From contig VXWI01000113.1 in the NCBI GenBank assembly GCA_009835985.1, positions 172 to 64,171 on the forward strand: a stretch of 64,000 bases of DNA. The letters are read 5' to 3'. Below the pieces are notes generated by a model. The model ran no database searches. It saw only the letters and a program-made list of their open reading frames with translations, and was not told the DNA's origin. The position numbers and the translations under genes were made by a program. This document shows, piece after piece, positions 11,570 to 62,868 of the stretch (position 1 is the stretch's first letter; every line of letters begins with the position of its first letter). Origin of the DNA: Acidobacteriota bacterium. Lineage in GTDB: Bacteria > Acidobacteriota > Vicinamibacteria > Marinacidobacterales > Marinacidobacteraceae.

Positions 11570-14500
11570 TCAGGAAGCGGGAATACGCCGTGCCAGCGTT
11601 CCGGTTACGTCGCTCGCAAGGCTGTAGAGAACCGGCACCAAGAACAACGTGACCAGAGTCGCGAAGGCGACTCCGAAAGCCAGGGACACCGCCATCGGAA
11701 TCAGGAGGGCGGCCTGATAGCTGCGCTCCGCCAACAATGGGGTTACGCCGGCGCAGGTGGTCACCGACGTGAGGATGACGGCCCGGAAACGGGCCGGTCC
11801 GGACTGAAGCGCCGCCTCCCGGGCCGAAAGCCCCCGCGCCCGGCGCCGATTCGTGAAGTCGAGCATCACCAGTGCATCGTTCACCACGATCCCGATGAGC
11901 GGCACCATCCCGAAGAGACTCATCGAATCGAGATTGATTCCCATGATGAGATGTCCGAACACGGCGCCGGCGAGTCCGAACGGGATCGCGGCCAGGATGA
12001 GGAAGGGCTGGGTCCACGAACCGAGCGGGATCGCGAGTAGCACGAAGATGAGCATCACGGCCAGGAGCCCGCTACGCGCCAGGGCTGCCTGGCTCTCCTC
12101 CGCCTCGCCCGCCATCCCGGCAACCCTGAAGTCAACTCCCGGGAACCGCTCGCGGAGCCCGGGCAGCACTTGATCGCGGGCCGTGGCGATGACCGCATCC
12201 GGAGTGGCCACCCGCCCGTCCACGCTGACCAAAACGGTGACCGCCCGCAGCGAGTCCACCCGGCGGATGACCGACTGTCCGGCGGCAGGGGAGACCTCGG
12301 CGATGTCACCCAGGGGGTTTAGCCGCCCGTCGGGACTGCGCACGAGCATGTCGGCCACTCCCAACGCCCCACCCGAATCGGCGCGCGGGGAGCGCAGCAA
12401 CACCCGAACTTCGTCGCGGCCCCGCTGTAGCCGCGCGACCTCCTCGCCGTGAAACGCCTGGCGGAGTTGGCGGCCCACGGCGCCTGCGGTGAGCCCGGTG
12501 CCCGATTCCCCGGGCGGGACGCGGGCCACGAGGCCCGGAGCGGCACCCTCGAAGTCGTCGGAAACGGACGTCACTCCCGGAACCTCGCGGAGTCCCGACT
12601 GGAGGGCCTCGGAGGCAGCCAGGAGGCCTTCGAAATCGGGACCCCGAACCCGGAGCGATACGTCCGCCGCCTGACCAAACGCATCGCTGATCACGGACAC
12701 CCGGGCGTCCACCGGTGCCGATCGAATCCGGTCCCGGACCCGATCCGCGACCGAGCGCGTCGAGATTCCCGCGCGGTCCTCCTGAGGGCTGAGCCGCCAG
12801 ACGATCTGTCCGACCGACGCGCCCAACTCCGCGGACTGTCCGCCGAAGGACTCCCCGACTCCGATCGGAATCCGCTGCCCCACGAGAACCACCCGGTGCC
12901 GCTCGACGTCCACTCCCGACTCGGCGCGAATCTCCTCGCGCACCTCATCCACCGTGGCGTCGAGCGAAGCGACCACCGCACGGGTGGCGTCCGACGTCGC
13001 TTCCGCCGGTAGCTTGACCTGGACGAACGCGATGTTGTTGTCCATGGGCGAGCCGGTCACGACCTGCACGAAACCCCCGGCGGTGAGCCCGAACGCGAGG
13101 CAGAGCGCGAAGACGCCGAGCGCCAGAGTCGCCAGCCGGTTGTCGAGCGCCCACTCGAGCGCAGGTCGGTAGACCGTCTCCACGGTCCAGTCGAAACCCG
13201 ACTGGACCGCGCCCCGGACCCGTGCAAGACGGCGGCTCGGACGCACGGACAACCCGCCGTGCGCCAGGTGATGCGGCAGGATCCAGGCGGCCTCGATCAG
13301 CGAGAACGCCAGGATGGGAATCACCATCCGCGGCACGTCGCCGATCAGCTCGCCGTAAACGCCCGGGATCCCGAGGAGCGGGGCAAAGGCGGCCATCGTG
13401 GTCAGAACCCCGAAGGCCGCCGGAAAAAGCACCCTCCGGGTTCCACGAATGGCTGATTCCTCCCGGCTCTCCCCACCGTCGTCCATCCGTCGCTGGACGT
13501 TCTCGCCCACCACGATCGCATCGTCCACCACGATGCCGAGGGCCACGATGAATCCGAACATGCTGAGCAGGTTCACGGTGATCCCGAGTCCGGGCATCAA
13601 AAGAAAAGCGCCGAAGAACGTGAACGGCAAACCGGCCGCCGTCCAGACTGCGAGGCGGGTCGAAAGCGTGAAGAAGAGCACCAGGAAGATGAGTCCGAGA
13701 CCGGACAGCCCGTTCCGGACCATGAGGTCCAGACGACCCTGGAAGTCCTCGGATGCGAAGTACCAGGGGGTGACCCGGATCCCGTCAGGAAGCTGCGTCG
13801 CCCGGATGACCTCCCGCGCTCCCGCCGTGGTGTCCGCCAGCCGGCCGCCGTCTTCCAACAGAACGCTCAGAAACACTGCCGGCTCGCCATTCATCCAGGC
13901 TTCACGATCCGATGCGGCGAAACCGTCGGTGACGGTAGCAACGTCCCCCAGACGCACCACGCCGCCGTCCGCCGCCGTGATCACCGGAATCCGACTGAAA
14001 TCCTCGGCGGTCGTTGCGGCGCCCTCGGTACGCAGCGTGAGTTCATGGGCTCCGCTGCGCGCGGTGCCCGCGGGGATGTCCGCGGAGCCCAGCCGGACCG
14101 CGTCTCGGACGCCGTCGAAGGTCAACCCGAACCGCGTCAGGTTCCGCTCGGGGATCTCGATGGTCAGTTCCTGATCCCAGCCCGTGAGCCGCTCCACGGC
14201 GGCCACCCCGGGTACCGCCACCACTGCGTCGTGGACGCGCCGGGCCGCCTGGTGGAGATCTCGGTCGCTCACCGCCCCGTGTACCGCGATCCGGAAGATC
14301 TCCCGGTACCGGGCGATCTCGGAAACCACGGGATCCTCCGCCTCCGCCGGAAGCGAGGTGAGGGATCCCACGCGTTCGCGCACCGTGTCCCCGAGGCGGC
14401 GAATGTCCGCCCCTGCTTCGAGTACCAGCGTGAGCGCGCCGGCGTCGTCTGCTGCGAACCCGGTCATCTCCCGCACGCCCTCGATGCCCCGCAGCGCTTC

Positions 14501-18678: not shown

Positions 18679-20751
18679 TCAGTTCCCGTCTGCCTCCGGC
18701 AGCGCGAGCGCCACGTAGGACTCCGGCACCCGGCCCCGTCGGCCCGTCTGGACCAGGATGTACTGCCGTCCCTCGTGCTTGTACGTCATCATGCCGTACA
18801 TCCCGATCGCGGGCAGCTGGATGCTGCCGACCTTCTCGCCGGTCAGCTTGTCGTGGGCGTTCAGGACCGGCGGGCCGGCCATCCCCTCGGTGGTGAGGAG
18901 GAGGTCGCCGCTCACCATCAGGATCGCCCGGCCCTGACCGCCCACGTTCGACAGATCCACGCCCTCGAGGGCCGGATGGTTCTTGATGCGGTCGTTGGGT
19001 TCGCCGATCGGGACCCACCAGAGGTGCTCGCCGGTGTTCATGTCGATCGCGGTGACCCGGCTGTAAGGCGGCTTGTAGATGGGCAGCCCGTCAGGACCGG
19101 GAATTCCGATCGCGCGGTAGTTGACCCAGTCGGCGATCGTCTCGCCGATGGTGGTGCACTTCCCGCTCGGCGAGGTGCAGTCGTGGTCCGGCTGGTCGGC
19201 GTCCACGCCGGGCTGCACGATGCGGCCCGAGCAGTTGGGACCCGAAGACTGGTAGAGGATCCCGGTCCCGGGGTCGAGGGCGGCCGGGTGGGTGATGTTG
19301 ACCGCGGAGTGGACGCCGCAGGCGATCCACCCCTTGTTTTCGTTGTATCCCTTGGGAATGGGTGGCATGTAGGGGCCGCCCACCGTGTACTCGGAGACGA
19401 TCTCCATGGCCTTCTGCCTCAGTTCCGGGGTGTAGTCGATCAGGTTGTCCTCGCTGAGGTCGAGCATCTCGACCGGGGCCGGCACCGTCGGGACCGGCTG
19501 GGTGGGCGACAGCTTCTCGCCGGGCACGATGGACTGGGGGACCTCGACCTCTTCGATGGGCCACACCGGCTCGCCGGTCTCCCGGTTGAAGGCGAACGTG
19601 TACCCCTGCTTGGTGGTCTGGATGGCCATTGGCACCTTCTCGCCGTTCACCTCCACATCCACCAGGATCGGGACATTCGGGAGATCGTGGTTCCAGATGG
19701 GGTGGTGCGTGGTCTGGAAGTGCCAGACCCGCTCGCCGGTCTGGGCATTGAGCGCGATCACGCTGGTCCCGAACAGGTTGTCTCCCGGCCGGAACCCGCC
19801 ATAGAAGTCGATCGTCGGCGCGTTGGTAGGGATGTACACGATGTCCCGTTCGAGGTCAGCCGACAGCGGAGCCCACGACGAGACGTCGCCGGTCCACTTC
19901 CAGGCATCGTTCTCCCAGGTACTGGCGGCGAAGTCATCCTCGGAGCGTGGGGTCACGTTGAACTTCCACTTGAAGTCGCCGGTGCGCGCGTCGAACGCGA
20001 GGATGTCGCCGGGGACGTTCTCGATCCGCGTCTGGTGGTATCCCTGCGCGGCGGAGTTCCCCACCACGATGGTCCCGTTCACCACGATCGGGGGCGAGGA
20101 ATTCGTGATGTACCCCACGGTCGGGGCCAACCCCTCGTAGGGGTCGTAGTTGTAGCCGAAGTGGGCGAGGAGGTCCACGACGCCGGTCTTCGGGAATCCG
20201 GGGATGTCCACCGGCGCGCCGAAGCCCTCGATGTGCTCCCCGGTCTCGCCGTCGAACGCGTGCAGGAAGAACGCCGGGGAGACCACGTAGATGACGAGCC
20301 GCCCGTCGATCTCGGCGTAGGCAACGCCCTTGCCATAGCTCGAGCGCATGGACTCCTCGAAACGCCGGGTGTCCGGCTCCGCGTAGGTCCACAGCGTCTC
20401 CCCCGTTTCGGGGTCCATCGACACCACCGTGCGCCGGTAGCCCACCACCGTGTAGAGCCTGCCGTTGATGTAGCTCGGGGTGGACTTCGAGAGGTAGCTC
20501 GGCTTCGGCCCGTAGTTGTCGCCGCGCCACATCCAGGCGACCTCGAGGTCGCCAAAGTTGTCGGCGTTGACGTCTTTGAGCGGGGACGAGCGGGTGCCCC
20601 AGGCATCGCCGCTCTGGTACCGCCATTCGCCTGCGGGCATGTCGCGGTTCTGGGCCGCGAGCGGCGCGGCGAACAGCAGCGCGGCGACCAGAGCTCCCGC
20701 GATCCGGATCGGGCGTTTCGCGGGCGCGCAAAGAGGATTCAGTCGGGTCAT
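18679..20751 (-). CDS. PQQ-dependent dehydrogenase (quinoprotein beta-propeller, glucose/alcohol dehydrogenase-like), secreted
   Basis: Track ORF 18679-20802, trimmed to ATG 20751, which is preceded by GGGAGG. Signal peptide is IAGALVAALLFAAPLAAQ. Recurrent W-containing propeller repeats include ETGETLWTY, RTGDFKWKF, QTGERVWHF, ETGEPVWPI and NTGEHLWWV. Confidence 0.8.
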   Translation of the reverse strand: MTRLNPLCAPAKRPIRIAGALVAALLFAAPLAAQNRDMPAGEWRYQSGDAWGTRSSPLKDVNADNFGDLEVAWMWRGDNYGPKPSYLSKSTPSYINGRLYTVVGYRRTVVSMDPETGETLWTYAEPDTRRFEESMRSSYGKGVAYAEIDGRLVIYVVSPAFFLHAFDGETGEHIEGFGAPVDIPGFPKTGVVDLLAHFGYNYDPYEGLAPTVGYITNSSPPIVVNGTIVVGNSAAQGYHQTRIENVPGDILAFDARTGDFKWKFNVTPRSEDDFAASTWENDAWKWTGDVSSWAPLSADLERDIVYIPTNAPTIDFYGGFRPGDNLFGTSVIALNAQTGERVWHFQTTHHPIWNHDLPNVPILVDVEVNGEKVPMAIQTTKQGYTFAFNRETGEPVWPIEEVEVPQSIVPGEKLSPTQPVPTVPAPVEMLDLSEDNLIDYTPELRQKAMEIVSEYTVGGPYMPPIPKGYNENKGWIACGVHSAVNITHPAALDPGTGILYQSSGPNCSGRIVQPGVDADQPDHDCTSPSGKCTTIGETIADWVNYRAIGIPGPDGLPIYKPPYSRVTAIDMNTGEHLWWVPIGEPNDRIKNHPALEGVDLSNVGGQGRAILMVSGDLLLTTEGMAGPPVLNAHDKLTGEKVGSIQLPAIGMYGMMTYKHEGRQYILVQTGRRGRVPESYVALALPEADGN

Positions 20752-20831
20752 CCGGAACCTCCCATGATCTTGAGAAACGGGAATCGTAAGCGTTTTGGCC
20801 AACGTTTGGGGCAGGTCGAGGGTTCCGTCGG

Positions 20832-22916
20832 TTACCGGAGTACATCCAGCAGATTGGAATGGTCATCGGTCCACAGGAACCGGTCGGCCGGTTCGGCGGC
20901 CTCCCCCGTCCAGGGCTCCGCCCTCCCGAGCAGGCTCGGGTCGGTGATGAGGTCGGTGTTCAGGCTGAGCACCACCCAGGTCGCGGTGTAGTGGAACAGA
21001 TCGGGGTCCGGATCGCTGACCGTGAGCAACGACAGCAGGTCCAGGCGGAGGCCCTGGGCGCGGATCACCGGGGCGAGATCCACGTGGCGGTTCGAGATGT
21101 GGACCGCGATCGTGCCGCCCGGGGCCAGTCGGCTCTGGTAGAGATCGAACGCTTCGGCGGTGAGCAGGTGGACCGGGATCGCGTCGCCGGCGAAGGCGTC
21201 CAGCACGATCACGTCGAACTCCGCCTCTCCGGCGCCTGCTTCCCGGAGCAGGCTCAGCCGGCCGTCACCCAGCACGACCTCCACCTCCGCCGGCGCGTCG
21301 TCGAGGAAGGTGAAGTACTCGCGCGCCGCCTGCACGACCTGCGGGTCGAGCTCGTAGAAGCGGAACAGGTCTCCGCGCCGCCCGTGGACGACGATAGACC
21401 CGGTCCCGAGCCCGACGACAGCGACCCGGAGGGGCCGCACCAACCGACGGTTGGGGTGCCGGTTCAGGACCGCCTCGATACCGGTGCCCTCGTAGTAATA
21501 GAGGGTGGGCTCGCGGCGGCGCCCGGGCGCGAACCACTGGGACCCGTGGGCGATTCCCCCGTGCCACATGTCGCGCCGCCAGTCCGGCGTGCCCGGGTAG
21601 GCCTCCATGACGCGCACAACCCCGAAGAAGTTCCGGGTTGCGGTCAGCGGACGCCGATGTTCGAGCGCGCTGATGGCGATGGCGACCCCGAGGGTCGCCG
21701 CGGGGATGGCCTTCCGGGCGAGCGACCGGAAGGCGTCCCGGGGCGGCGTGGCCACGGCGAAGGCGACCACCACGGCGAGCACCAGGGCGAGCGGATACTC
21801 CCAGACGTTGGGGAAGAGCAGTGGACTGCCGATGGACGCGAAAAGCCCCCCGAGGGCGCCTCCGGCCGTCATGGACAGGTAGAAACCGGTGAGGCGCGTC
21901 GGAGCGGGTTTCCGCCGGACGATCTCCCCGTGGGTGATCCAGCACCCGGCGAACAGGAACCCGAGCGCCGCGACCGCGTGGGCGAGCAGGGCGCGCTCGA
22001 GGCCGTAGGTGATGTCCTGGAACCAGACGTAGAAGCACGCCGCCACCGAAACCAGCAGCAGCGGCACGAGGAACCGCCTCGGATACGGATCGCCGCCGCG
22101 GAACGCGAGGATGAACGTGAGCAGGTACAGGGCCAACGGGGCGATCCACAGGAACGGAACCGCTGCCACGTCGCGGGTGAGATGGGTCGTGACCGCGACC
22201 AGCGCCAGCGAGCCGACCGCGGCGAGCAGAAAGGCCGGGACATGGAAGTCACCGAGCCTGGACCCGGCCGGCGGGCCGGCGCGCCCGGCGTCGCCGGCCC
22301 GGGCCCGGACGGAAGCGACGCCCGCCAGGAAAGTCAGTGCGGCGAAGGCCACGAACCCCGCAGACCACAGCCGCCCCTGGGCGCCCAGTCCGAGCAGCGG
22401 CTCGAGCAACAGCGGATAGGCCGCGAGGCCGATCAACGACCCGGCATTCGAAAGGGCATACAGCCGGTAGACGCCGGTCGCCGCCGGGTCGTCGGCTGCC
22501 GAAGGACCCGCGCGGGCCACCCACGCCGACACCAGCGGCGTGGTGGCCGCGAGCGCGAAGAAGCCCGGCCCCAGCGTGACCAGGAGCGTGAGAAGGATCC
22601 ACCCGGCGGGCGCTTCCCCGCCGTCCGGCGCCCAGCCGGTTCCGGGAAGCGGCGGCAGGCTGGCCAGCGCGGCCAGCGCGAGGAGGACGCCGTGGACCGC
22701 CAGCTGGACGCGCGGGGCGAGGCGCGTCACCAGCAGGTGCGCATAGAGATATCCGCCGAGCAGCACCGCCTGGAAGAAGAAGAGCGCGACGGCCCACACC
22801 ATCGGGGCCCCGCCGTACCAGGGCAGCAGGCTGCGCGCGGCGAGTGGCTGGACCACGAACAGGAGCGACGCCGCGAGGAAGACCGCGGCACCGGAGAGCC
22901 ATAGTCGGCGGGGCAT
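20832..22916 (-). CDS. Fused polytopic membrane domain / spermidine-synthase-like methyltransferase-fold protein
   Basis: Track ORF 20832-23186, trimmed to ATG 22916 (MPRRLWLSGAAVFLAASLLF...). About 450 aa form many TM helices. The C-terminal domain then has VAVVGLGTGS...FYELDPQVV...DVIVLDAFAGDAIPVHLLTAEAF...LAPGGTIAVHISN (the aminopropyltransferase/SAM-fold pattern). Confidence 0.8.
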   Translation of the reverse strand: MPRRLWLSGAAVFLAASLLFVVQPLAARSLLPWYGGAPMVWAVALFFFQAVLLGGYLYAHLLVTRLAPRVQLAVHGVLLALAALASLPPLPGTGWAPDGGEAPAGWILLTLLVTLGPGFFALAATTPLVSAWVARAGPSAADDPAATGVYRLYALSNAGSLIGLAAYPLLLEPLLGLGAQGRLWSAGFVAFAALTFLAGVASVRARAGDAGRAGPPAGSRLGDFHVPAFLLAAVGSLALVAVTTHLTRDVAAVPFLWIAPLALYLLTFILAFRGGDPYPRRFLVPLLLVSVAACFYVWFQDITYGLERALLAHAVAALGFLFAGCWITHGEIVRRKPAPTRLTGFYLSMTAGGALGGLFASIGSPLLFPNVWEYPLALVLAVVVAFAVATPPRDAFRSLARKAIPAATLGVAIAISALEHRRPLTATRNFFGVVRVMEAYPGTPDWRRDMWHGGIAHGSQWFAPGRRREPTLYYYEGTGIEAVLNRHPNRRLVRPLRVAVVGLGTGSIVVHGRRGDLFRFYELDPQVVQAAREYFTFLDDAPAEVEVVLGDGRLSLLREAGAGEAEFDVIVLDAFAGDAIPVHLLTAEAFDLYQSRLAPGGTIAVHISNRHVDLAPVIRAQGLRLDLLSLLTVSDPDPDLFHYTATWVVLSLNTDLITDPSLLGRAEPWTGEAAEPADRFLWTDDHSNLLDVLR

Positions 22917-22944
22917 AACGTCGGGGTTACGATACGGCCTCGTT

Positions 22945-23523
22945 ATGAAGAAGCGCCGAACACCGCCCTCCCGAGCCGGCAACCCCGCAACTCCAACCAC
23001 AACCGCCAAGCCCGCCGCCGCCCGGAAGGGATGGGGCGCCGCTCCGATCCTCGCGATCGGCCTGCTCGTGGCGGGCGCGGCCGTCTTCTTCGTCGCCGCC
23101 TTCGAGGACACGACGGTGGAGAGCGGCCTGCAGCCGGCTTCGGACCTGTCCGCCGACGCGTACGACCTCGGAAACCAGGCGGCCAAGCCGTTTCCCTACT
23201 ACGACTCGGTGGAGGAGGCGCGTCCCTTCCCGGTGACGCTCCCTCCCAACACCTACGAGAACGAGACGCTGCAGACGGCGTACGCCATCGCCAAGGGGAT
23301 CCCCGAAGTGCTCGTCCAGTTGCCCTGTCTGTGTGGCTGCCACGGCGCCTCCGAAGATCACGGGAGCCTGCTCGACTGCTACGTGGACAACCACGCCGCC
23401 ACTTGAAGCACCTGTCTCCAGGAGGTCCTCCTGGCCAAGGAAATGCACGATGACGGCGCGAGTCCCGACGAGATCCGCGAGGCGATCTACGAGCACGAGT
23501 TCACCGACATCCCGCTGAGGTAG
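22945..23523 (+). CDS. PCYCGC/CYCXC-motif family membrane-anchored protein, predicted selenoprotein (TGA 23404-23406 read as Sec, U-S-T-C motif)
   Basis: Track ORF 22945-23406 ends at TGA after ...LPCLCGCHGASEDHGSLLDCYVDNHAAT. The same frame continues as STCLQEVLLAKEMHDDGASPDEIREAIYEHEFTDIPLR to TAG 23521-23523. A SECIS-like hairpin lies 11 nt after the TGA. The N-terminus has a K/R-rich stretch plus one TM helix. Confidence 0.7.
23418..23434 (+). promoter_or_regulatory. Candidate bacterial SECIS minihelix
   Basis: CCAGGAG-GUC-CUCCUGG is a perfect 7-bp stem (or 6 bp with a GGUCC loop). It starts exactly 11 nt after UGA 23404-23406, and the apical loop contains GGUC. Confidence 0.6.
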
Positions 23524-23630: not shown

Positions 23631-24035
23631 CTAAGGCTCCCGCCAGTACAGGGGGTTTGGGCGGTAGCGCGGGAACGCCCAGGGGAGGACCTTCGTTTCC
23701 GCGTCCGCCGACGTCCCGGGTCCGGGCGACGGGGAACTCTCCCGGGGGCCGTGCTCTTCCTCGAGGTAGTCCAGGATCCTCTCGTGGGTCTCGGGCTCGA
23801 GCGGCGGCATGCCCATCCCGATCATCATGTCGAGCACCCCTTCCCACTCTTCACGGGGAAGGTTCAGCGCCCTGATGTAGCTGTCGTCGTGGCAGTAGAG
23901 ACAGTTCTCGTCGATGAGGGCCCGGCCGTCGTTCTCCTGCCAGGCGGTGAGCGCCGGGATGCCGCGTTCCTCCCCGCCCGCCGCTGCGGCCACCGGCAGC
24001 AACGCGATCACAGAACCAAGTAGCAGACGTTTCAT
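23631..24035 (-). CDS. sorB: Monohaem cytochrome c, SorB-like partner of sulfite dehydrogenase
   Basis: Track ORF 23631-24071, trimmed to ATG 24035 (MKRLLLGSVIALLPVAAAAG signal). It has a single CLYCH haem-binding motif. The start lies 1 nt after the sorA-like stop. Confidence 0.7.
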   Translation of the reverse strand: MKRLLLGSVIALLPVAAAAGGEERGIPALTAWQENDGRALIDENCLYCHDDSYIRALNLPREEWEGVLDMMIGMGMPPLEPETHERILDYLEEEHGPRESSPSPGPGTSADAETKVLPWAFPRYRPNPLYWREP

Positions 24036-24036
24036 C

Positions 24037-25245
24037 TCAGAGTGCGGTGACCGCGATCCGGTGCATTGCATTGTTCAGGTAGCCGCGCGGGTTCCAACCC
24101 GGGACGACCATGGGCTGCTGGCGTCCCCGGTGGTCCGTCGCGCGCGCCCAGAGTTCATAGTGGCCGGGAATGTCGAAGGCGATGGACCCCTCGAACCGTT
24201 GCCACGCGAACGGGTTCTCGGGCTCCTCGAGCTGACACGGGAGCCAGGTGGCCCCGAAGTCGGCGCTCAGGTGCATCGCGTTCACCGGCCCGTCGCCGGC
24301 CCACGCCCAGCCCCGGACCGCGAGCGGCCCTCCGCCGACGTGGCGGACGCCCGTCTCGGGACGGGTGATGATGGACTTCACCGGCATGGGGCCGATGATC
24401 TCCATGTCCTCCTCGGGCACGTCGGTTCCGGGAGCGACCGGATACCGCGGCACCCGGTAGGAATAGCCCATCATCTTGGGGCCGTCGTGGACCTGGTCCC
24501 GGACCCAGAGGCGGCTCAGCCACTTCCCGCTCGCCGAGGCGGGGAACCCCGGGGCGACGATCCGTAGCGGAAAGCCATGGTGCGGAGGCAGAGGTTCGCC
24601 GTTCATGTCCCAGGCAAGGAGAGTCGACTCGTCCATGGCCTTGGACAGCGGGACGCCCCGGGAAATCGCGACGTCGTCGGGATTCCCGCTCAGGTGCGGA
24701 TCCTCGCCGTAGTAGGCGACGTAGACGGCAGTGTCGAGCACGCCGGCCGCATCGAGCACGTCGCGGAGGCGGACACCGGTGTAACGCGCGCAGCCGACGG
24801 CGCCGAGCCACCACTGGTTGCCCGACGCCCCCGGCTGGAAGGCCGCTCTCCCGTTTCCCGCACATTCGAGCACGAGGGCGCGGCTCACGTTCTCGAAGCG
24901 CGCCTTGAGATCGTCAAGCGAGAGATTCAGGGCGTTTCCCACCTCGCCGTCGACGCGGAGCGACCAGCCCTCGAGGGTTCCGGAGAGGGCCCGCTCGGGC
25001 ACCCCGCCGTTGTTCCGGACGAAGTGCTTGTCGTTGGGCGTGTAGCGGGGATCGAGGTCGGCAACCAGAGTCTCGGCGTTCACCGGCCGTTCGCTCAGAA
25101 TCCGCAGGCCGCTCTTTCCGAAGACGGCTCCCCCGCCCTGCCCGGCGGCGCGCTCGAGAGCCAGCGCGCTCGCGCCGGCGGCAACGGGAACGGCGCCGAG
25201 AAACCGCCGTCGCGACAGCGGGGGAACAGGCCTCATGGGCCGCAA
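24037..25245 (-). CDS. sorA: Molybdopterin-dependent sulfite dehydrogenase/oxidase-family catalytic subunit (SorA-like), Tat-exported
   Basis: 402-aa track ORF. Twin-arginine signal is LSRRRFLGAVPVAAGASALA. The conserved Mo-ligand cysteine block is LVLECAGNGRAAF. HGFPLRIVAPG and a C-terminal dimerisation domain are also present. Confidence 0.85.
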   Translation of the reverse strand: MRPMRPVPPLSRRRFLGAVPVAAGASALALERAAGQGGGAVFGKSGLRILSERPVNAETLVADLDPRYTPNDKHFVRNNGGVPERALSGTLEGWSLRVDGEVGNALNLSLDDLKARFENVSRALVLECAGNGRAAFQPGASGNQWWLGAVGCARYTGVRLRDVLDAAGVLDTAVYVAYYGEDPHLSGNPDDVAISRGVPLSKAMDESTLLAWDMNGEPLPPHHGFPLRIVAPGFPASASGKWLSRLWVRDQVHDGPKMMGYSYRVPRYPVAPGTDVPEEDMEIIGPMPVKSIITRPETGVRHVGGGPLAVRGWAWAGDGPVNAMHLSADFGATWLPCQLEEPENPFAWQRFEGSIAFDIPGHYELWARATDHRGRQQPMVVPGWNPRGYLNNAMHRIAVTAL

Positions 25246-32611: not shown

Positions 32612-32860
32612 ATGGCGGAAACCGCGAAGCTTTTCTGGTCCGGGCGTTCGCAGGCGGTGCGCCTGCCGAAATCGTTCCGGATGGAAGGGAACGAAGTACG
32701 GATTCGCCGGCAGGGACGCCAGGTGCTCCTCGAGCCCATCGCCGAGGATTGGGCGTGGCTGGACGCGATCGCCGGCAAGTTCTCCGACGACTTCTTCGCC
32801 GAGGGACGCCGGCAGCCGGACCAACAGGAACGACCTGAACTCGATGCGTTGTTCCGGTGA
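32612..32860 (+). CDS. vapB: Type II antitoxin VapB (AbrB/MazE/SpoVT-fold)
   Basis: 82-aa track ORF. AKLFWSGRSQAVRLPKSFRMEGNEVRIRRQGRQVLLEP is the swapped-hairpin AbrB-type DNA-binding pattern. It lies immediately upstream of a PIN toxin with overlapping stop/start. Confidence 0.85.
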   Translation: MAETAKLFWSGRSQAVRLPKSFRMEGNEVRIRRQGRQVLLEPIAEDWAWLDAIAGKFSDDFFAEGRRQPDQQERPELDALFR

Positions 32861-33273
32861 TGCGGTACCTGCTGGACACCAACGCCTGCATCGCCCTGCT
32901 CAACCGCAGCGATCCCCAGTTGGAGCGCCGAGCCCGCCGACACGCCGTGCCGGACGTCGGGCTGTCCTCCCTGGTCGCATTCGAGCTGTACTACGGAGCA
33001 TTCAAGAGCCGTCGCGCCGGGGACAACGTCGCCCGGTTGGACTCCGTGGGACTGGAGGTCGTCCCGTTCGACGCCTCGGACGCACGTTCGGCAGGCGCTG
33101 TCCGGGCTGAACTGGAACGTAGCGGACTCCCGATCGGCCCCTACGACATCCTGATCGCCGGCCAGGCGCGCGTTCGTGGGTTGGTGCTCGTGACCGCCAA
33201 CGTTCGAGAGTTCGAGCGCGTCAACGGCCTGGTATGCGAGGACTGGTCCGGCCGTCGGGCTGCCGCGACGTAA
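32857..33273 (+). CDS. vapC: Type II toxin VapC (PIN-domain ribonuclease)
   Basis: 138-aa track ORF. MRYLLDTNACIALL carries the first acidic PIN residue. ELYYGA, YDILIAGQA and LVTANVREFERV follow. The start is GTG 32857 or ATG 32860, overlapping the vapB TGA. Confidence 0.9.
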   Translation: MMRYLLDTNACIALLNRSDPQLERRARRHAVPDVGLSSLVAFELYYGAFKSRRAGDNVARLDSVGLEVVPFDASDARSAGAVRAELERSGLPIGPYDILIAGQARVRGLVLVTANVREFERVNGLVCEDWSGRRAAAT

Positions 33274-41190: not shown

Positions 41191-42867
41191 GTGATCGCAC
41201 AACGACCGCTCCGCCTCGGGGCGGGCGCCGGAGCGCTGCTCTTCGTGGCCGCCCTGATCGCGCCAGCCAGCGCCCAGGAGGCACGTTTCGTGGACGTGAC
41301 CGAAGCCGCCGGCATCGACTTCGTCCACGAGAACGGGGCCTTCGGCGAGAAGTACCTTCCGGAGACGATGGGCAGCGGGGTCGCCTTCTTCGACGCCGAC
41401 GGCGACGGCGACCAGGACCTGCTCTTCGTGAACAGCCGCCGGTGGCCGGGACACCGGACCGAGCCGGAGCCGACCGCGGCGCTCTACCTGAACCGCGGCG
41501 ACGGGACCTTCGAGGACAGGACGGCCGGGTCGGGGCTGGACGTCCCCCTCTACGGCCTGGGCGCGGCCCTCGCCGACTACGACGCCGACGGCGACCAGGA
41601 CCTCTATCTCACCGTCCTCGGACCGAACCGCCTGCTCGAGAACACCGGCCGCGGGGTGTTCCGGGAGGCGCCCCACGCCGCGTCGGTTGCGGACCCCGGC
41701 TTTTCGAGCGTCGCCACCTGGCTCGACGCCGACGGCGACGGGGACCTCGATCTCTTCTTGCTGAACTACGTGGAGTGGTCCATCGAGGAAGACATCTACT
41801 GCGCCCTCGACGGCGTGAACAAGAGCTACTGCACGCCGGAGTCCTACAACGGGGCGAGCGCCGTCCTCTACCGGAACGACGGCGCCGAGGGGTTCACCGA
41901 CGTCACGCGGGAGGCGGGACTCTTCAACCCCCGGGGGAAGGGCCTCGGGGTTGCGGTCCTCGACTTCGATGACGACGGGCTCTTCGACCTCGCGGTGGCG
42001 AACGACACCCAGCCCAACTACCTCTACCGCAATCTCGGGGGCGGGCGGTTCGAGGACGCCGGGGTGCTCTCCGGGATCGCCTTCGCGGAGAACGGGGCGG
42101 CCCGGGGCGCCATGGGCATCGACGCCTCCGACTACGACGGCGACGGCATGCCCGACCTCGTCATCGGGAACTTCTCGAACGAGATGGTCTCGCTCTACCA
42201 CAACGAGGGCGTCGGTTTCTTCATCGACCAGGCGCCGGTCTCGGAGATCGGCCGCAACAGCCTGCTCACCCTGGCGTTCGGGGCTTTCTTCTTCGACTAC
42301 GACCTCGACGGACGCCAGGACATCTTCGTCGCGAACGGCCACGTCGAGAACGACATCGCCGCGGTCCAGCAGCGGGTGAGCTACCGCCAGGCCCCCCATC
42401 TCTTCCGGAACCGGGGGGACGGCGGCTTCGACGAAGTGACCACCGCCTCGCCGGACCTCGCCCGACCCATGGTGGCCCGGGGAGCGGCCTTCGGCGACAT
42501 CGACGGCGACGGCGATCCGGACCTCGCGGTCAGCGGGAACGGCGGTCCGGCGCGACTCTTCCGGAACGACGGCGGCGAGCGGAACGGCTGGGTGGGCTTC
42601 CGGCTCCGGGGAGGAAATTCGAACCGGGACGGAATCGGTGCGAAGATCATCCTCGCCATCGAGGATGCCGGCATGACCCGCAGCGAGACCCGCGTCGTGA
42701 AGAGCGCCACCGGGTACGCCTCGCAGAACCAGCTCGAGGTGGTCTTCGGCCTGGGCGCCGCCGGGCGGGCGGTGTCCGCCGAGGTGCGCTGGCCTTCGGG
42801 CGCCCGGAGCGAGGTCGAGGCCCCGGAGGCGCGCCGCATCCACGTCGTGGAGGAGCCGCCCGCGTGA
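41191..42867 (+). CDS. CRTAC1-family protein (FG-GAP/VCBS beta-propeller repeats plus ASPIC/UnbV C-terminal domain), secreted
   Basis: Frame of track ORF 40978-42867, from GTG 41191 (signal LLFVAALIAPASAQE). Repeated FFDADGDGDQDLLFVN, DYDADGDQDLYL, LDADGDGDLDLFLLNY, DYDGDGMPDLVIGNF and GDIDGDGDPDLAVS. The UnbV-like end is GIGAKIIL...TGYASQNQLEVVFGLG. Confidence 0.85.
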   Translation: MIAQRPLRLGAGAGALLFVAALIAPASAQEARFVDVTEAAGIDFVHENGAFGEKYLPETMGSGVAFFDADGDGDQDLLFVNSRRWPGHRTEPEPTAALYLNRGDGTFEDRTAGSGLDVPLYGLGAALADYDADGDQDLYLTVLGPNRLLENTGRGVFREAPHAASVADPGFSSVATWLDADGDGDLDLFLLNYVEWSIEEDIYCALDGVNKSYCTPESYNGASAVLYRNDGAEGFTDVTREAGLFNPRGKGLGVAVLDFDDDGLFDLAVANDTQPNYLYRNLGGGRFEDAGVLSGIAFAENGAARGAMGIDASDYDGDGMPDLVIGNFSNEMVSLYHNEGVGFFIDQAPVSEIGRNSLLTLAFGAFFFDYDLDGRQDIFVANGHVENDIAAVQQRVSYRQAPHLFRNRGDGGFDEVTTASPDLARPMVARGAAFGDIDGDGDPDLAVSGNGGPARLFRNDGGERNGWVGFRLRGGNSNRDGIGAKIILAIEDAGMTRSETRVVKSATGYASQNQLEVVFGLGAAGRAVSAEVRWPSGARSEVEAPEARRIHVVEEPPA

Positions 42868-44879
42868 GGTTCACGCTCGCCCTGGCCGGCGCGGCCGCCC
42901 TGGCGGTGCTCGGACTGTTCGCCACCACGCTCGGTTCGCCTCCGGTCGCCGCGGCCGCCGTTCAGGCCGCGCAACCGCTCCCCCCGCCCCTGTCCGAACA
43001 GCCGTCCATGATGGTCGGGTCGGCCGAGTGCCTGACCTGCCACGAGCAGGCCCATGACGACTGGACCTCCTCCCGCCATTCCAAGATGGTGCAGCCGGCC
43101 GTCCCCGGCCAGGTGCTCGGGGACTTCTCGCAGGAGGTCCTCAGGCTCCGCGGCGAGGAGTACCGGATTCGCCGGACCGGCTCCCGGTACTTCATCACCG
43201 AGCCGTTCTTCACCGGCGAACCCGTCGAGCACCGGGTGGACTACACGCTCGGGAACCGCCGCATCCAGCACTACCTGACGACGCTCGAGGACGGCCGGGT
43301 CATCGTGCTGCCGCCGACCTGGGACGTGCTGCGGCGGGAGTGGTTCCACAACCTCGAGATCGCCGCCCCCGACCAGGCGGAGGGCATCGTCCCGGTCCAG
43401 CTCTGGAACAAGAACTGTTTCGGCTGTCACGTGAGCGACCAGATCAAGGGCTTCCGGCCCGGGGAAAATCGCTACGACACCACCTGGCTCGACTTCGGCA
43501 CCACCTGCGAGCGCTGCCACGGACCGGGCAGCCGGCACGTGGACAAGTACATGAACCTCGAGTTCTACGGCGACGATCCCGCGAGCTACATCGTGCAGCA
43601 GACCCGGCTGGACCACGAGACGAACTCGATGGTCTGCGCCCAGTGCCACTCGTTCCGGGACCAGATGGCCTTCGGGTTCGCCGCCGGCGACAACTACTTC
43701 GACCATTTCTTCCCGATCCTCGAGTACACCCAGGAGCCTTCCGAGGACCCCACCTGGTACCCGGACGGGAAGACCCGCCGGTTCTCCACCAACACCCTCG
43801 GCATCTGGCAGAGCGAGTGTTTCGTGGAGGGGGGCGCCACCTGCACGGGTTGCCACATCGATCCCCACCGTCCCGACATCGAGAGGAACGAACAGCTCCT
43901 GCCGACGAACAACGGGCTCTGCACGGGCTGTCACGAGGCGATCGGCGCCGATCTCGCGGCGCACACCTTCCACCCCGCCCAGAGCGAAGGCAGTTCGTGC
44001 GTCGAGTGCCACATGCCGCGCAGCGTCACGAGCATCCGGGCGAAGATGCGCGACCACAGCATCTCGATCCCGTCCCCCCGGAACACTGCCCGATACGGAG
44101 TGCCCAACGCCTGCAACGAATGCCACACCGCCGAGAGTCCCGAATGGGCGACCGAACGGATGGACGAGTGGTGGGGCGAGACGCCGCGCCGGCGGAAGAT
44201 CGAACGGCGCGCCGACGCCTACACCGGCGCGCGCCAACTGAACCGGGAGGCGCTCGATCATCTGCTCGCCATGTCGGCCGACGAAGGCGAGGGCCCCATC
44301 AACCGGGCGAACGCCGCCGGACATCTCGGCCGCTACCTGGCGGACCCGGCGACCCGGGAGCCGGCAACCCGCGCTCTGCTCGCCGCCTCGGGGGATGCCC
44401 ATCCCCTGGTGCGGGCGGTCGCTTCCCTGAAACTGGGGGAGACCGGGAACACCGGGTCCGCCGAGATCCGGGACACCCTCGTCGCCCGCGTCCAGGACGA
44501 ACGCCGTTCGGTGCGGATGAACGCGGCCATCTCGCTTCTCAACCTCGGCATCCGCACCCTTCCGGGAGAAGCCGACAAGAGCTTCGAACTGGCGAAGCGC
44601 CTGCACGCGATCCGGGGCAACTTTTTCGCCGACGACGCGCCCCAACAGCTCAACATCGGACGCCTGCACGTGCTTGACGGCAACTCCGCGGCAGCCAGCC
44701 GGGCGTTCGAGCAGAGCTACAACCTGGACTCCAGCCAGCCCGGAATCCGCTTCTTCATGGCGGTGACCCGCCTCTCGCAGCAACGGATCCCGGAAGCGCG
44801 GGACCTGCTGCGCTCCGTTCCCGCGGAAGACCCCTTCGCCCAGGAAGCACAGAACCTGCTCCGCCAACTCGAACCCTGA
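42864..44879 (+). CDS. Octahaem cytochrome c with C-terminal HEAT/TPR-like repeats, secreted
   Basis: 671-aa track ORF. GTG 42864 overlaps the CRTAC1 TGA (GTGA). It has a signal peptide and eight CxxCH motifs (CLTCH, CFGCH, CERCH, CAQCH, CTGCH, CTGCH, CVECH, CNECH). The C-terminus is helical-repeat. Confidence 0.85.
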   Translation: MRFTLALAGAAALAVLGLFATTLGSPPVAAAAVQAAQPLPPPLSEQPSMMVGSAECLTCHEQAHDDWTSSRHSKMVQPAVPGQVLGDFSQEVLRLRGEEYRIRRTGSRYFITEPFFTGEPVEHRVDYTLGNRRIQHYLTTLEDGRVIVLPPTWDVLRREWFHNLEIAAPDQAEGIVPVQLWNKNCFGCHVSDQIKGFRPGENRYDTTWLDFGTTCERCHGPGSRHVDKYMNLEFYGDDPASYIVQQTRLDHETNSMVCAQCHSFRDQMAFGFAAGDNYFDHFFPILEYTQEPSEDPTWYPDGKTRRFSTNTLGIWQSECFVEGGATCTGCHIDPHRPDIERNEQLLPTNNGLCTGCHEAIGADLAAHTFHPAQSEGSSCVECHMPRSVTSIRAKMRDHSISIPSPRNTARYGVPNACNECHTAESPEWATERMDEWWGETPRRRKIERRADAYTGARQLNREALDHLLAMSADEGEGPINRANAAGHLGRYLADPATREPATRALLAASGDAHPLVRAVASLKLGETGNTGSAEIRDTLVARVQDERRSVRMNAAISLLNLGIRTLPGEADKSFELAKRLHAIRGNFFADDAPQQLNIGRLHVLDGNSAAASRAFEQSYNLDSSQPGIRFFMAVTRLSQQRIPEARDLLRSVPAEDPFAQEAQNLLRQLEP

Positions 44880-44903: not shown

Positions 44904-45710
44904 ATGAATCCCAAGGCAACGCTGTTCGCGGCAGCCGTCGTCCTGGCGGCGGGCTTCGGCCCGGCCGAACCCGCCGCCGCCCAGGAACGCCAAGGTTTTC
45001 GCTTGGGGATCGCCGTTCCCCTCGAGCGCGCCGGAGTCACGTACGAAAAAGCCGTCGACAACACCGATCCGGAGACCCTGGTGCCGGCGCCGCGCCGCGG
45101 TCAGGTGTTCGAGGACGAGGGGTCCGCCAGCGGTCCGCTGGCCGGATTGGCGCTGCTGGCCGGCTACCGCTGGGCGCTGGGTGGCGGAACGTTTTTCGGC
45201 GCCGAAGCGGATCTCGCATTCCACCGCGGCGTGCTCGAAGCGCAGCTCGAAGGCTCGGGAACCTCCCCGTCCCGGAGGCAGCTCGGCGAAGTGTGGCCCG
45301 ACGACTGGTCCTTCGAGAAGCGGCACAGCTACGGGGTGACGGTGCACTTCGGCGGCAGCCCCGGCGGACTGGATTCCCGCGACGAAAGCGTCTATCTCCT
45401 TGCCGGCGTGCACCGGGTCGCCGCCCAGGTGACGGTCAACTGGCTTGGGTGTCTTTCACCGGTCCCCTGCGCGCCGGACCAGTTCGCGTCGGGCGCCGAC
45501 GCCCGCGATCTGGACTTCCTCGCCTGGACCGTGGGCGTGGGTTTCGAAAAGCACCTCGGAGAACGCATCGCCCTCCGTGCCGAGGGCCGCTATCGGACCT
45601 ACACCGAAGAAAGCTGGGTCGCCGACTTCCCCGAGGTGCGGGTCACCGTTCCGACCGGCGCCCGGGGCCGGGGGCCGGGCCTGACGCTGACGCTGGTCTT
45701 CGAACCGTAG
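44904..45710 (+). CDS. Putative outer-membrane beta-barrel protein
   Basis: 268-aa track ORF. Signal peptide is ATLFAAAVVLAAGFGPAEPAAAQE. Alternating hydrophobic beta-strand pattern (LALLAGYRW, FFGAEADLAF, YLLAGV, LAWTVGVGFEKHL, IALRAEGRYRTY). The C-terminus is not the canonical aromatic residue, so confidence is moderate. Confidence 0.5.
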   Translation: MNPKATLFAAAVVLAAGFGPAEPAAAQERQGFRLGIAVPLERAGVTYEKAVDNTDPETLVPAPRRGQVFEDEGSASGPLAGLALLAGYRWALGGGTFFGAEADLAFHRGVLEAQLEGSGTSPSRRQLGEVWPDDWSFEKRHSYGVTVHFGGSPGGLDSRDESVYLLAGVHRVAAQVTVNWLGCLSPVPCAPDQFASGADARDLDFLAWTVGVGFEKHLGERIALRAEGRYRTYTEESWVADFPEVRVTVPTGARGRGPGLTLTLVFEP

Positions 45711-60270: not shown

Positions 60271-61986
60271 ATGACGACATGCCCTCCCGGCGGCGCGGCG
60301 CTCGCCGCCGTCCTGCTCGCCGCCTTCGCGGCGTGCGCCGCCCCACCCGAACGAGAACCGGCGGACCTCGTCGTGCGAGGGGGCGCAATCCACACCGCGG
60401 ACGCCCGGAACCCGGTCGCGGAGGCCCTGGCGGTACGGGAAGGCCGGTTCGTTCTCGTCGGGGACGCGCGCGAGGCGGAGCGCTGGATCGGCGAAGCCAC
60501 GGACGTGATCGAACTCGACGGCCGAGCGGTCATTCCGGGACTGATCGACGGACATGTGCACCTGGAGTCGGGGCTCTCCCTGATCCGCGGGGTGGACCTG
60601 ACCGGCATCGCGGACCGGGATGAATGGATGCGCCGCATCGCCGCCCGGGCCGCCGAACTGGGTCCGGGGGCGTGGATCGTGGGCGGACGCTGGGACCACA
60701 CCCTGTCCGGCGGCGAGTTCCCCTCCCTCGAGGAGCTCGATCCCGTGACCCCCGAGAATCCGGTGGTGCTGTCCGACATCGACGGACACACCGCCTGGGC
60801 CAACAGCCTCGCACTCGAGATCGCCGGCGTGGACGCCAACACCCCGGATCCCCCGGGTGGCCGCATCCTCCGCTACGCGTCGGGCGACCCCACCGGAATC
60901 CTCCTGGAGACCGCTGGCGGGCTGGTCGAGGCGCATGTCCCTCCGCTCAGCGGGGACGAGGAGCGCGAGATCATGCGCCAGACGTTCCGGGCCGCCGCCG
61001 GGCTCGGACTCACCGGAGTCCACACGATGGCGGGGCTGGACCGGATTCCGGCCTACGTCGGCTTCGCCGAGGCCGGCGAGTTGCCGCTTCGGGTCTGGTA
61101 CGGCGCTTTCGGCGCCGAGGACCGGGTCGACGAGCTGGCCGGGGCGCGCGATGACGCTCGGAGCGTGTTGGCCACCGTCACCGCGGAGCGGGGTCCGACG
61201 TTCGAGGTCGGCTACGGAAAGTTGATGGCCGACGGGGTGCTGTCAGCCCGGACGGCGGCCCTGCTCGCTCCGTACGCCGACGCTCCCGACGAGTCGGGGT
61301 TCATGGTGACCGAATTCGACGATCTCGCCGCCGCGGTGACCCGGATCCACGCGGCCGGCTTCCCGGTGGCGATCCACGCGATCGGCGACCGCGCGGTGCG
61401 GGTATCCCTCGACGCCTTCGAGCGCGCCGCCGGCCAGGGGCCGCGTCCGGAGCTCGCCGACCGCATCGAGCACATCGAGGTGCTGGACCCGGGCGACGCC
61501 CCGCGATTCGGGGAGCTCGGAGTGCTCGCCTCCTTCAATCCGCACCACTGCATCACCGGGATCGACGTCTACAACACCGACCGTCTGGGAGAGGCCCGGG
61601 CGGCCTGGTCCTTCGCCTGGGGAGCGGCGCGGGACGCGGGGGCCACCCTGGTGTTCGGAAGCGACTGGGCCACCGCGCCGCTCGACCCGCTGCGCCAGCT
61701 CTACGCCGCGACGGTGCGCGAAAAACCCGCCGGCGGGCCGCCGGGCGGGTGGCATCCGGAGCAGCGGGTCCCCTGGCCGGAAGCGCTGACCGCCTACACG
61801 CTCGCGCCCGCGTCCGCCGCTGGCTGGGACCGCGAGATCGGCTCGATCGAGTTGGGGAAGTGGGCCGATTTCGTGGTGCTGAGCGGTCCGGTCCCGGACC
61901 CGCCGGACCGTTCGATTCTCGACCTGCGGGTGGAATCCACCTGGCTGGGCGGGGCGCCCACGTATCAGGCGGCACCGGAGCGCTGA
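60271..61986 (+). CDS. Amidohydrolase-family metallohydrolase (amidohydrolase 3 type), exported
   Basis: 571-aa track ORF. The N-terminal metal motif is VIPGLIDGHVHLESG. AIHAIGDRAV, IEHIEVL and GSDWATAP follow. The N-terminus is signal/lipobox-like (LLAAFAAC). Confidence 0.85.
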   Translation: MTTCPPGGAALAAVLLAAFAACAAPPEREPADLVVRGGAIHTADARNPVAEALAVREGRFVLVGDAREAERWIGEATDVIELDGRAVIPGLIDGHVHLESGLSLIRGVDLTGIADRDEWMRRIAARAAELGPGAWIVGGRWDHTLSGGEFPSLEELDPVTPENPVVLSDIDGHTAWANSLALEIAGVDANTPDPPGGRILRYASGDPTGILLETAGGLVEAHVPPLSGDEEREIMRQTFRAAAGLGLTGVHTMAGLDRIPAYVGFAEAGELPLRVWYGAFGAEDRVDELAGARDDARSVLATVTAERGPTFEVGYGKLMADGVLSARTAALLAPYADAPDESGFMVTEFDDLAAAVTRIHAAGFPVAIHAIGDRAVRVSLDAFERAAGQGPRPELADRIEHIEVLDPGDAPRFGELGVLASFNPHHCITGIDVYNTDRLGEARAAWSFAWGAARDAGATLVFGSDWATAPLDPLRQLYAATVREKPAGGPPGGWHPEQRVPWPEALTAYTLAPASAAGWDREIGSIELGKWADFVVLSGPVPDPPDRSILDLRVESTWLGGAPTYQAAPER

Positions 61987-62004: not shown

Positions 62005-62868
62005 ATGAGCGGAGTCCCAGAGTCCATCGTCTCCGCCGCCTGGCTCCGCGGGCGGCTCGCGGCCCGCGACTCCCGGCTCGTCGTGGTGGATGTCCGTTCG
62101 GACCTCAACGACCCGGACTGGGGGGGCGCCCGGTATCTCGAAGGGCACCTCCCGGGCGCCGTGTTCGCGGATACCGACCGCGACCTCTCCGCGCCGAAGA
62201 CCGGGACCAACGGGCGCCACCCGCTCCCCACGGTGGAGCGCATGGCCGAGGTCTTCGGGCGCCTCGGGATCGGGCCGGACAGCGTGGTCGTCGCCTACGA
62301 CCATGCCTCGGGACTGTTCGCGGCGCGGCTGTGGTGGATGCTGCGCCATCTCGGACACGCCGAGGCCGCCGTGCTGGACGGCGGGATGGATGCCTGGGAG
62401 GTGGCCGGAGGGTCGCTTGTCCCGGGAGAGGAAACCCGCGCGCCCCGACGTTTCGTCCCGAGGCCGGAGGCCGCGATGGCGATCGGCCTGGCCGAAGTCG
62501 AGGCCGGTCTCGCGAGCCGCGCGCACGTGCTTGTGGACGCCCGGGAACCGGTCCGCTGGCGCGGCGAGCACGAACCCATCGACCCGGTGGCCGGACGGAT
62601 CCCGGGGGCCCGCAACCACCTCTGGAAGGAGAGCCTCGGGCCGGACGGCCGCTTCCGCTCGCCGGAAGACCTGCGCGCGAGGCTCGGTGGCCTCACCGCG
62701 GACCGGGCCGGACGCCGCGTCGTGTGCTACTGCGGCTCCGGCCTGAGCGCCGCGCACAACGCACTCGCGCTGGAACTCGCGAGCATCGAGGACGTGGCGG
62801 TGTACTCGGGGTCCTGGTCCGAGTGGTGCGCCGACCCGCGCCGTCCGGTGGAACGGGGAACGCCGTAG
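62005..62868 (+). CDS. sseA: 3-mercaptopyruvate/thiosulfate sulfurtransferase (tandem rhodanese domains)
   Basis: 287-aa track ORF. YLEGHLPGAVF lies in domain 1. The active-site loop is VCYCGSGLSAAH, followed by VYSGSWSEW. Confidence 0.85.
   Translation: MSGVPESIVSAAWLRGRLAARDSRLVVVDVRSDLNDPDWGGARYLEGHLPGAVFADTDRDLSAPKTGTNGRHPLPTVERMAEVFGRLGIGPDSVVVAYDHASGLFAARLWWMLRHLGHAEAAVLDGGMDAWEVAGGSLVPGEETRAPRRFVPRPEAAMAIGLAEVEAGLASRAHVLVDAREPVRWRGEHEPIDPVAGRIPGARNHLWKESLGPDGRFRSPEDLRARLGGLTADRAGRRVVCYCGSGLSAAHNALALELASIEDVAVYSGSWSEWCADPRRPVERGTP

Follow-up and report, generated by a model that had tools for sequence, protein, structure and literature searches.

An in-frame TGA codon predicted to encode selenocysteine in a membrane-anchored CYCXC-family protein of Acidobacteriota

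Does the TGA codon at positions 23404-23406 of a 64-kb stretch of Acidobacteriota DNA (contig VXWI01000113.1; the whole stretch that was analysed is hereafter called the window) end a protein, or is it read as selenocysteine (Sec, U) within a longer one? On the + strand, 153 codons run from ATG 22945 to this TGA (the translation ending in ...SLLDCYVDNHAAT*), after which the same frame remains open for 38 sense codons (STCLQEVLLAKEMHDDGASPDEIREAIYEHEFTDIPLR) up to TAG 23521-23523. An earlier reading of the letters alone, hereafter the original prediction, had described this layout, which translation reproduces, and had proposed that the TGA encodes Sec in a membrane-anchored protein of the PCYCGC/CYCXC family. 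Our analysis agrees with that interpretation: given a match to the family hidden Markov model (HMM), an alignment with cysteine-containing homologues and a hairpin located behind the codon, we put the probability that UGA 23404-23406 encodes Sec in a membrane-anchored CYCXC protein at about 0.9. According to translation and to the HMM, the complete coding sequence would span 22945..23523 (+ strand) and code for 192 amino acids (aa), including Sec at position 154 (U154), before the TAG stop at 23521-23523.

An open frame behind a stop codon means little in this DNA. Indeed, the GC content of the window is 69.8%, longer open extensions were found behind many of its open reading frames (ORFs), and the chance that a random extension stays open for 38 codons is estimated at about 50%, so that, in DNA of about 70% GC, the 38-codon opening alone is unremarkable. 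The tail (23407..23520, + strand), which is absent from public annotations, is nevertheless more than a chance opening, since its composition is of the coding type, it matches the family model, it recurs in 26 other genomes and its ratio of nonsynonymous to synonymous differences (pN/pS) is 0.35. Its GC contents at second and third codon positions (GC2/GC3) are 0.34/0.89, values that are typical of real genes in the window and that bear out the protein-like composition announced beforehand. TGA is the ordinary stop codon of 31 of the 47 coding-like ORFs of the window, where it is the commonest stop; UGA is therefore not reassigned genome-wide, and any recoding must be local.

The window gene is a member of the CYCXC family, also designated OS_HP4 or PCYCGC. 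With U read as C, the readthrough product scores 99.1 bits against the NCBIfam model NF041379 (OS_HP4_CYCXC, "CYCXC family (seleno)protein"), above the curated cutoff of 90, and its residues 96-184 cover profile positions 2-88 of 90. The 153-aa truncated product, which covers positions 2-57 only, reaches 60.7 bits and falls below the cutoff, and the tail by itself matches positions 60-88 (E = 1.7e-4). The family named in the original prediction is thus recovered with the readthrough product and lost with the truncated one. The Pfam counterpart of this model, PF13798 (PCYCGC), is matched by the 192-aa product at 43 bits. The family signature takes the form of a PCLCGC motif (residues 127-132; 23323..23340, + strand), in which P127, C128, C130 and C132 are invariant in an alignment with homologues (A1); H139, C145 and H150 are also invariant in this alignment, and U154 aligns with Cys. 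That the family contains UxxC selenoproteins has been published before: reviews list OS_HP4/PF13798 as a one-Sec selenoprotein family with a UxxC motif (PMC9312934, PMC13188914) and credit OS_HP4 to the study of the Olavius algarvensis symbionts (Zhang & Gladyshev 2007). The main text of that paper tabulates OS_HP1-3 and does not name OS_HP4, so the attribution follows the reviews.

A protein search returned 74 relatives, which fall into two groups. The lengths of the close relatives (57-93% identity) range from 143 to 189 aa, with most between 151 and 163, and their query coverage does not exceed 80%; in alignment A1, the called proteins of all of them stop at ...HAAT. The distant relatives (about 40-48% identity) are 183-203 aa long, with a query coverage of up to 99%, and these full-length proteins go on with H-A-S-T-C-x-x-C-[ML]-[KQ]-E-A...E-I-R-[ED]-A-I...[FY]-S-x-[VI]-x-I-G-N, a pattern that is also found in the window tail. 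Homologues do not, then, end at the position of the TGA: the Cys relatives of 183-203 aa carry 38-39 further residues that align with the tail, and the TGA is aligned to the first Cys of a CxxC within H-x3-C-x2-C. In the window, this segment would read U-S-T-C (UxxC; 23404..23415, + strand) within H150-x3-U154-x2-C157, according to translation and to alignment A1. As for the block H-x3-C-x-x-C-L-E, given in the original prediction as typical of the Cys-containing members, its H-x3-C-x-x-C part is correct, whereas the ending is C-[ML]-[KQ]-E and not C-L-E.

The codon itself was surveyed by a DNA scan with one genome per species, which yielded 42 loci, each with a neighbourhood of about 20 kb. 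All but one of them (41/42) come from Acidobacteriota metagenome-assembled genomes (MAGs), mostly labelled Vicinamibacteria, "Ca. Marinacidobacterium" or "Ca. Marinacidobacterales"; the remaining one (L042) comes from a cyanobacterial MAG. The aligned codon is TGA in the window and in 26 loci, with exactly 38 open codons after each, and it is TGT or TGC in 15 acidobacterial loci and in the cyanobacterial locus, i.e. the aligned position is Cys, as predicted, in 16/16 non-TGA loci. The TGA forms include long-read closed chromosomes. In a neighbour-joining tree of the domain, they group together in one clade, with the acidobacterial Cys forms as its sister, and because of this monophyly the sequences would fit a single Cys/Sec switch. 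Six assemblies of the same organism, made independently, contain the identical gene, among them ENA scaffold_220 of sample SAMN12347681, from which the window derives, and the NCBI MAG GCA_009839885.1, and all six call it as 153 aa; in the window genome and its 26 relatives, the residues lost from the public calls number 39 and include the predicted Sec and its partner Cys. Several isolate names of the Sec forms are, we presume, those of sponge-symbiont MAG studies, the record titles naming no host, and the window adds to the family a member and in fact a whole sponge-symbiont Acidobacteriota clade. In the Cys-form clade, the MAG names suggest, as far as titles tell, soil surveys (MFD, SMAG), plus 'Ca. 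Marinacidobacterales'. A Sec/Cys habitat split, as read from record titles, would fit the reported marine enrichment of Sec use.

Pooled pairwise Nei-Gojobori estimates gave a pN/pS of 0.345 for the tail of the Sec forms, of 0.372 for the 45 codons upstream in the same forms (a value that a one-codon indel in four sequences raises slightly) and of 0.362 for the tail of the Cys forms. As the Sec-form tail matches the Cys-form tails, which are undoubtedly part of the polypeptide, it is translated and constrained.

Behind the TGA lies a hairpin resembling a Sec insertion sequence (SECIS), CCAGGAG-GUC-CUCCUGG (23418..23434, + strand), whose arms (23418-23424 and 23428-23434) form 7 bp around a GUC loop (23425-23427). 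The published criteria for bacterial SECIS elements (bSECIS) comprise an apical loop of 3-9 nt, a stem of 4-16 bp, a distance of 16-37 nt from UGA to loop, a G at loop position 1 or 2, after which G or U is the usual nucleotide, and a minimum free energy (MFE) of -7.5 kcal/mol or lower (PMC13188914). With a loop of 3 nt (G then U), a stem of 7 bp, a UGA-loop spacing of 18 nt and an MFE of -10.4 kcal/mol, the window hairpin agrees with all four published criteria; the original prediction had proposed to look for a bacterial SECIS after the TGA, and a hairpin of this kind is indeed present. Measured on the real sequences and counted from the U of UGA, the tetranucleotide GGUC occupies nt 21-24 in the window and nt 22-25 in E. 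coli fdhF.

This hairpin is under RNA-level selection. Its sequence is unchanged in 24 of the 27 TGA forms; in locus L017, a two-sided change from G-C to A-U is compensatory and keeps the pairing at the price of a Leu-to-Phe replacement, and in L020 and L036 one terminal pair is opened in each. The loop G-U is kept in 27/27 TGA sequences, and at these codons a comparable helix is missing from all 16 Cys forms. The proportion of synonymous differences (pS) of the six hairpin codons is 0.016 in the Sec forms, as against 0.46-0.48 for the flanking codons of these forms and 0.72 for the same six codons in the Cys forms. When per-codon third-position variability was permuted, a run of six codons was equally invariant in 28 of 200,000 permutations (p ~1.4e-4).

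Both strands of about 0.9 Mb were scanned blindly for TGA codons with coding-like sequence on both sides and a hairpin of this type, and the site was recovered in 21 of the 27 TGA-form sequences. Apart from it, the scan gave just two matches, both in L019, one being the normal stop codon of the gene of the major facilitator superfamily (MFS)/spermidine-synthase type, and it yielded no other candidate for a recoded TGA in the window. Two further pairs of consecutive ORFs in the window were considered as recoding sites and rejected, each consisting of separate, complete genes: at 42864-44879 / 44904-45710 (+ strand), the TGA of a gene for a multihaem cytochrome c with HEAT/TPR repeats precedes by 8 codons an outer-membrane beta-barrel gene in the same frame (44904-45710), and at 60271-61986 / 62005-62868 (+ strand), an amidohydrolase gene ending in TGA precedes, in the same frame, a double-rhodanese sulfurtransferase gene (62005-62868). 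The 5' stem arm of the hairpin also contains a perfect Shine-Dalgarno (SD) sequence, AGGAGG (23420-23425), paired to CCUCCU, which might affect ribosome pausing at the recoding site.

The encoded protein has a single transmembrane (TM) anchor at residues 35-53 (ILAIGLLVAGAAVFFVAAF; 23047..23103, + strand), with a Kyte-Doolittle 19-residue maximum of 2.7 and a predicted N-in/C-out orientation; this is its sole hydrophobic helix. Residues 1-33 contain 8 K/R and 0 D/E, and the 37 residues after the TM helix contain 8 D/E and 1 K/R, so that, following the positive-inside rule applied to these flanking charges, the C-terminal domain is placed outside the cytoplasmic membrane. The K/R-rich N-terminus and the one TM helix of the original prediction are thereby confirmed. 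For a full-length Cys homologue (P0043, taken from alignment A2), AlphaFold2 predicts a TM helix (33-55), a disordered linker and a small helical domain, for which the predicted local distance difference test (pLDDT) is 90-98. In this model, the PCLCGC segment forms a loop, and the Sec-equivalent Cys157 lies just before a helix (158-172), the first turn of which contains Cys160. Such a CxxC at the start of a helix, as modelled, would correspond to the arrangement of redox-active CxxC centres, which occurs in metal sites too. The invariant potential ligands are eight in number, namely the three Cys of CxCxC, H139, C145, H150, U154 and C157, which makes a metal-assisted redox centre plausible.

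Taken together, these features suggest a working scheme. UGA 23404-23406 would be recoded as Sec, the signal being the coding-region SECIS hairpin 23418-23434, and the GU-containing apical loop, situated 22-23 nt from the U of UGA, would provide the geometry that SelB with Sec-tRNA(Sec) uses in fdhF. In the resulting 192-aa product, the K/R-rich N-terminus would remain in the cytoplasm; after a single TM helix and an acidic linker, a helical domain of roughly 100 aa would face the periplasm, and in it U154 and C157 could make up a selenylsulfide redox centre on the outer side of the membrane, perhaps with the help of a metal.

Several results weigh against this scheme. Neither the 64-kb window nor any of the 42 neighbourhoods (about 20 kb each) contains a tRNA-Sec recognised by ARAGORN or a selA, selB or selD gene matched by tblastn queries of E. 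coli SelA/B/D; this local absence shows only that the Sec machinery is not linked to the CYCXC gene. Classical covariation in the hairpin is weak, with one compensatory pair whose score was equalled by 25 of 500 shuffles, because the stem is nearly invariant, and the argument for the RNA element is therefore one of synonymous-site suppression. Concerning the domain, no relative was found by sequence in the PDB, where the profile search matched only a designed coiled coil, in the N-terminal region; a Foldseek search against the PDB gave no significant match, the best thematic one being the CcmH N-terminal domain (E = 8.4, probability 0.09); and the published literature assigns no function to PF13798. 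An Rfam gathering scan of the window, L013, L019, L020 and L027 is uninformative, as it returned zero matches even for the tRNAs that ARAGORN had found (Ser in L013, Thr in L019, Gly in L027). A 95-nt 'tRNA-???' with a 4-nt anticodon (cgcg) was reported by ARAGORN at 13365-13459 (- strand) of L020, about 3 kb from the CYCXC gene, and was rejected as a tRNA-Sec or allo-tRNA: it is GC-rich and coding-like, has no Rfam support and was probably called in error, although Acidobacteria are reported to possess allo-tRNAs with GCG anticodons (PMC5389517).

Could the TGA then be a genuine stop, the 153-aa protein being functional and the 38 codons a non-coding relic of a longer Cys-type gene? This is what the public gene calls imply, since they all end at 153-162 aa; TGA is also the commonest true stop codon here, and Sec machinery is missing from the window and the 42 neighbourhoods searched. 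However, a relic would gather stops, frameshifts and nonsynonymous changes, whereas 27 genomes with 54-95% protein identity keep exactly 38 codons at a pN/pS of 0.35. Moreover, truncation removes the conserved partner Cys and about 30 profile positions, making the protein fail the family cutoff, and a relic leaves the frozen synonymous sites of the hairpin unexplained, so that we regard a genuine stop as very improbable. Although a single base change interconverts TGA with TGC or TGT, a sequencing or assembly error can be dismissed, the identical TGA being present in six independent assemblies and in 26 other species-level genomes, including long-read closed chromosomes. It is hardly credible, too, that AGGAGG acts as an internal SD driving separate translation of the tail as a small peptide: although the hexamer at 23420-23425 is a perfect SD sequence, the nearest start (ATG 23443) lies 17 nt past it and opens only 26 aa, the tail is contiguous with the domain in the Cys homologues, and in L017 the SD is weakened (AGGAAG) yet the base pair is restored, which points to selection for the helix and not for the SD.

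Another explanation is that UGA is read through, though not as Sec, the hairpin being a generic stimulator; the residue inserted could be Cys, by means of a SelC*-type tRNA-Cys(UCA), or that of an allo-tRNA suppressor or of a near-cognate tRNA (Trp). SelC* tRNA-Cys species with opal anticodons have been described in some anaerobes, and unusual suppressor-like allo-tRNAs in Acidobacteria (Mukai et al., PMC5389517), and the failure to locate Sec machinery in the window and the 42 neighbourhoods would be expected in this case. However, the groups from which the same study reports SelC* tRNAs are Firmicutes, Thermodesulfobacteria, Nitrospirae and Proteobacteria, without Acidobacteria, and the nonsense anticodon that it lists for allo-tRNAs corresponds to UAA (PMC5389517); with TGA as the stop of 31 of 47 genes, a global opal suppressor would also carry a high cost. 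The hairpin, for its part, fits the geometry of a SelB-type SECIS, with GGUC at nt 21-24 compared with 22-25 in fdhF and with agreement on the four bSECIS criteria, and catalogues of selenoproteins list the family with U at precisely this motif. Readthrough with another amino acid thus appears unlikely, and decoding of the TGA as Sec is preferred.

Regarding the genomic neighbourhood, the CYCXC gene diverges from a gene coding for a fused MFS/spermidine-synthase family membrane protein of 694 aa (20832..22916, - strand; NF037959, 61.3 bits, cutoff 40). The gap between the two start codons is 28 nt, as had been noted beforehand for a spermidine-synthase-like neighbour; this intergenic segment (22917-22944) separates ATG 22945 from the minus-strand ATG at 22914-22916, and a -10-like hexamer, TACGAT, ends 11 nt ahead of the CYCXC ATG. 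Because the divergent starts are 28 nt apart, either the promoters lie inside the coding sequence of the partner or the mRNAs have very short leaders. On the other side, the CYCXC gene converges on a gene coding for a small c-type cytochrome with a CLYCH haem motif (23631..24071, - strand), a putative SorB-like partner identified by its ORF and CxxCH motif, for which profile scans gave no family match, and on a gene coding for a SorA-like molybdopterin oxidoreductase of the sulfite oxidase family (24037..25245, - strand; PF00174, PF03404). The latter scores 215.7 bits against the SorA model NF052245, for which the equivalog cutoff is 600. The convergent sorAB genes of the original prediction are therefore present as a CxxCH cytochrome and a molybdoenzyme, but the molybdoenzyme is SorA-like, below the SorA cutoff, and not certified as SorA.

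The MFS/spermidine-synthase gene is adjacent and divergent in 26 of the 27 Sec forms and in 8 of the 15 Cys forms, and this pairing is kept even at about 40% identity, which is suggestive, though the pairing is not obligatory. A SorA-like gene occurs within 1.5 kb downstream in 18/27 Sec forms and 6/15 Cys forms, and the small cytochrome gene travels with it. Upstream of the MFS/spermidine-synthase gene, a pyrroloquinoline quinone (PQQ)-dependent dehydrogenase is encoded at 18679-20802 (- strand; PF01011, 503 bits); a PQQ-dependent dehydrogenase gene is present within 5 kb upstream in 26/27 Sec-clade loci, whereas no Cys-form locus has one nearby. The rhodanese gene (62005-62868) and the SorA-like gene give the window a theme of sulfur metabolism. 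A pair coding for a MazE antitoxin and a PIN-domain toxin (82 aa and 137-138 aa; 32612-33273, + strand) is also encoded, according to the Pfam annotation of the source contig. On the basis of this neighbourhood, we tentatively propose that the CYCXC selenoprotein and the divergent MFS/spermidine synthase could belong together as a conserved envelope module of two genes, to which a periplasmic SorAB-like sulfite dehydrogenase is often added; UxxC might then serve one of these enzymes as its partner in redox reactions or metal handling, with one Cys-to-Sec switch in a marine sponge-associated clade. A functional link of the CYCXC protein to the MFS/spermidine-synthase and SorAB-like genes is conceivable on these grounds; if true, the module would be the first functional handle on the PF13798 family.

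In terms of annotation, the gene would have to be corrected in the window genome and in 26 related species-level genomes, where it is 39 residues too short; the TGA forms stand in the protein database as truncated proteins, the only named one being labelled "hypothetical protein". The monophyletic clade of Vicinamibacteria / 'Ca. Marinacidobacterium' that would use Sec has an E. coli-like SECIS, which implies that these sponge symbionts decode Sec. The clean contrast between the Sec and Cys sister clades could serve the study of Cys-to-Sec transitions, and the conserved neighbourhood gives a testable clue to the role of a family that has no assigned function. Neither a new mechanism nor a new family is involved: the case is one of conventional bacterial SECIS-dependent recoding.

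When compared with known systems, the window protein shares with CYCXC/OS_HP4 a full-length HMM match, the PC-x-CGC signature and a single predicted Sec in UxxC. That family was named from a deltaproteobacterial worm symbiont, whereas the window form comes from Acidobacteriota (Vicinamibacteria / 'Ca. Marinacidobacterium', sponge-associated MAGs); moreover, it is TM-anchored, unlike the Parageobacillus PCYCGC protein, which is a lipoprotein (PMC13068155). The putative SECIS resembles that of E. coli fdhF in being a coding-region hairpin directly 3' of the UGA, with a near-identical GGUC spacing. It differs from the latter by its perfect 7-bp stem with a 3-nt loop, by the absence of a bulged U and by an otherwise unrelated sequence; the stem also encodes L-Q-E-V-L-L. 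The spacing of H150-x3-U154-x2-C157 equals that of the ZAS-type H-x3-C-x2-C zinc/redox-switch motif of anti-sigma factors, and this likeness is one of motif spacing only. A ZAS anti-sigma zinc finger was rejected, since a Pfam scan at E <= 1 gave only PF13798 and three weak N-terminal matches, the topology is extracytoplasmic and the context is different.

A functional analogy may exist with envelope proteins of the DsbA/CcmG/CcmH type, with which the window protein would share a predicted periplasm-facing, membrane-tethered domain and a U/C-x-x-C at the N-terminus of a helix; Sec in place of the first Cys is typical of redox selenoproteins. In contrast with these proteins, it has no thioredoxin fold and no significant match to them, and it possesses four extra invariant Cys and two invariant His, which suggest metal binding as well. 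Membership of the thioredoxin or CcmH families was rejected in view of the lack of a PDB sequence match and of the E value of 8.4 for the CcmH N-domain. By analogy, the window protein may nonetheless work like the envelope thiol-disulfide oxidoreductases, without belonging to their families.

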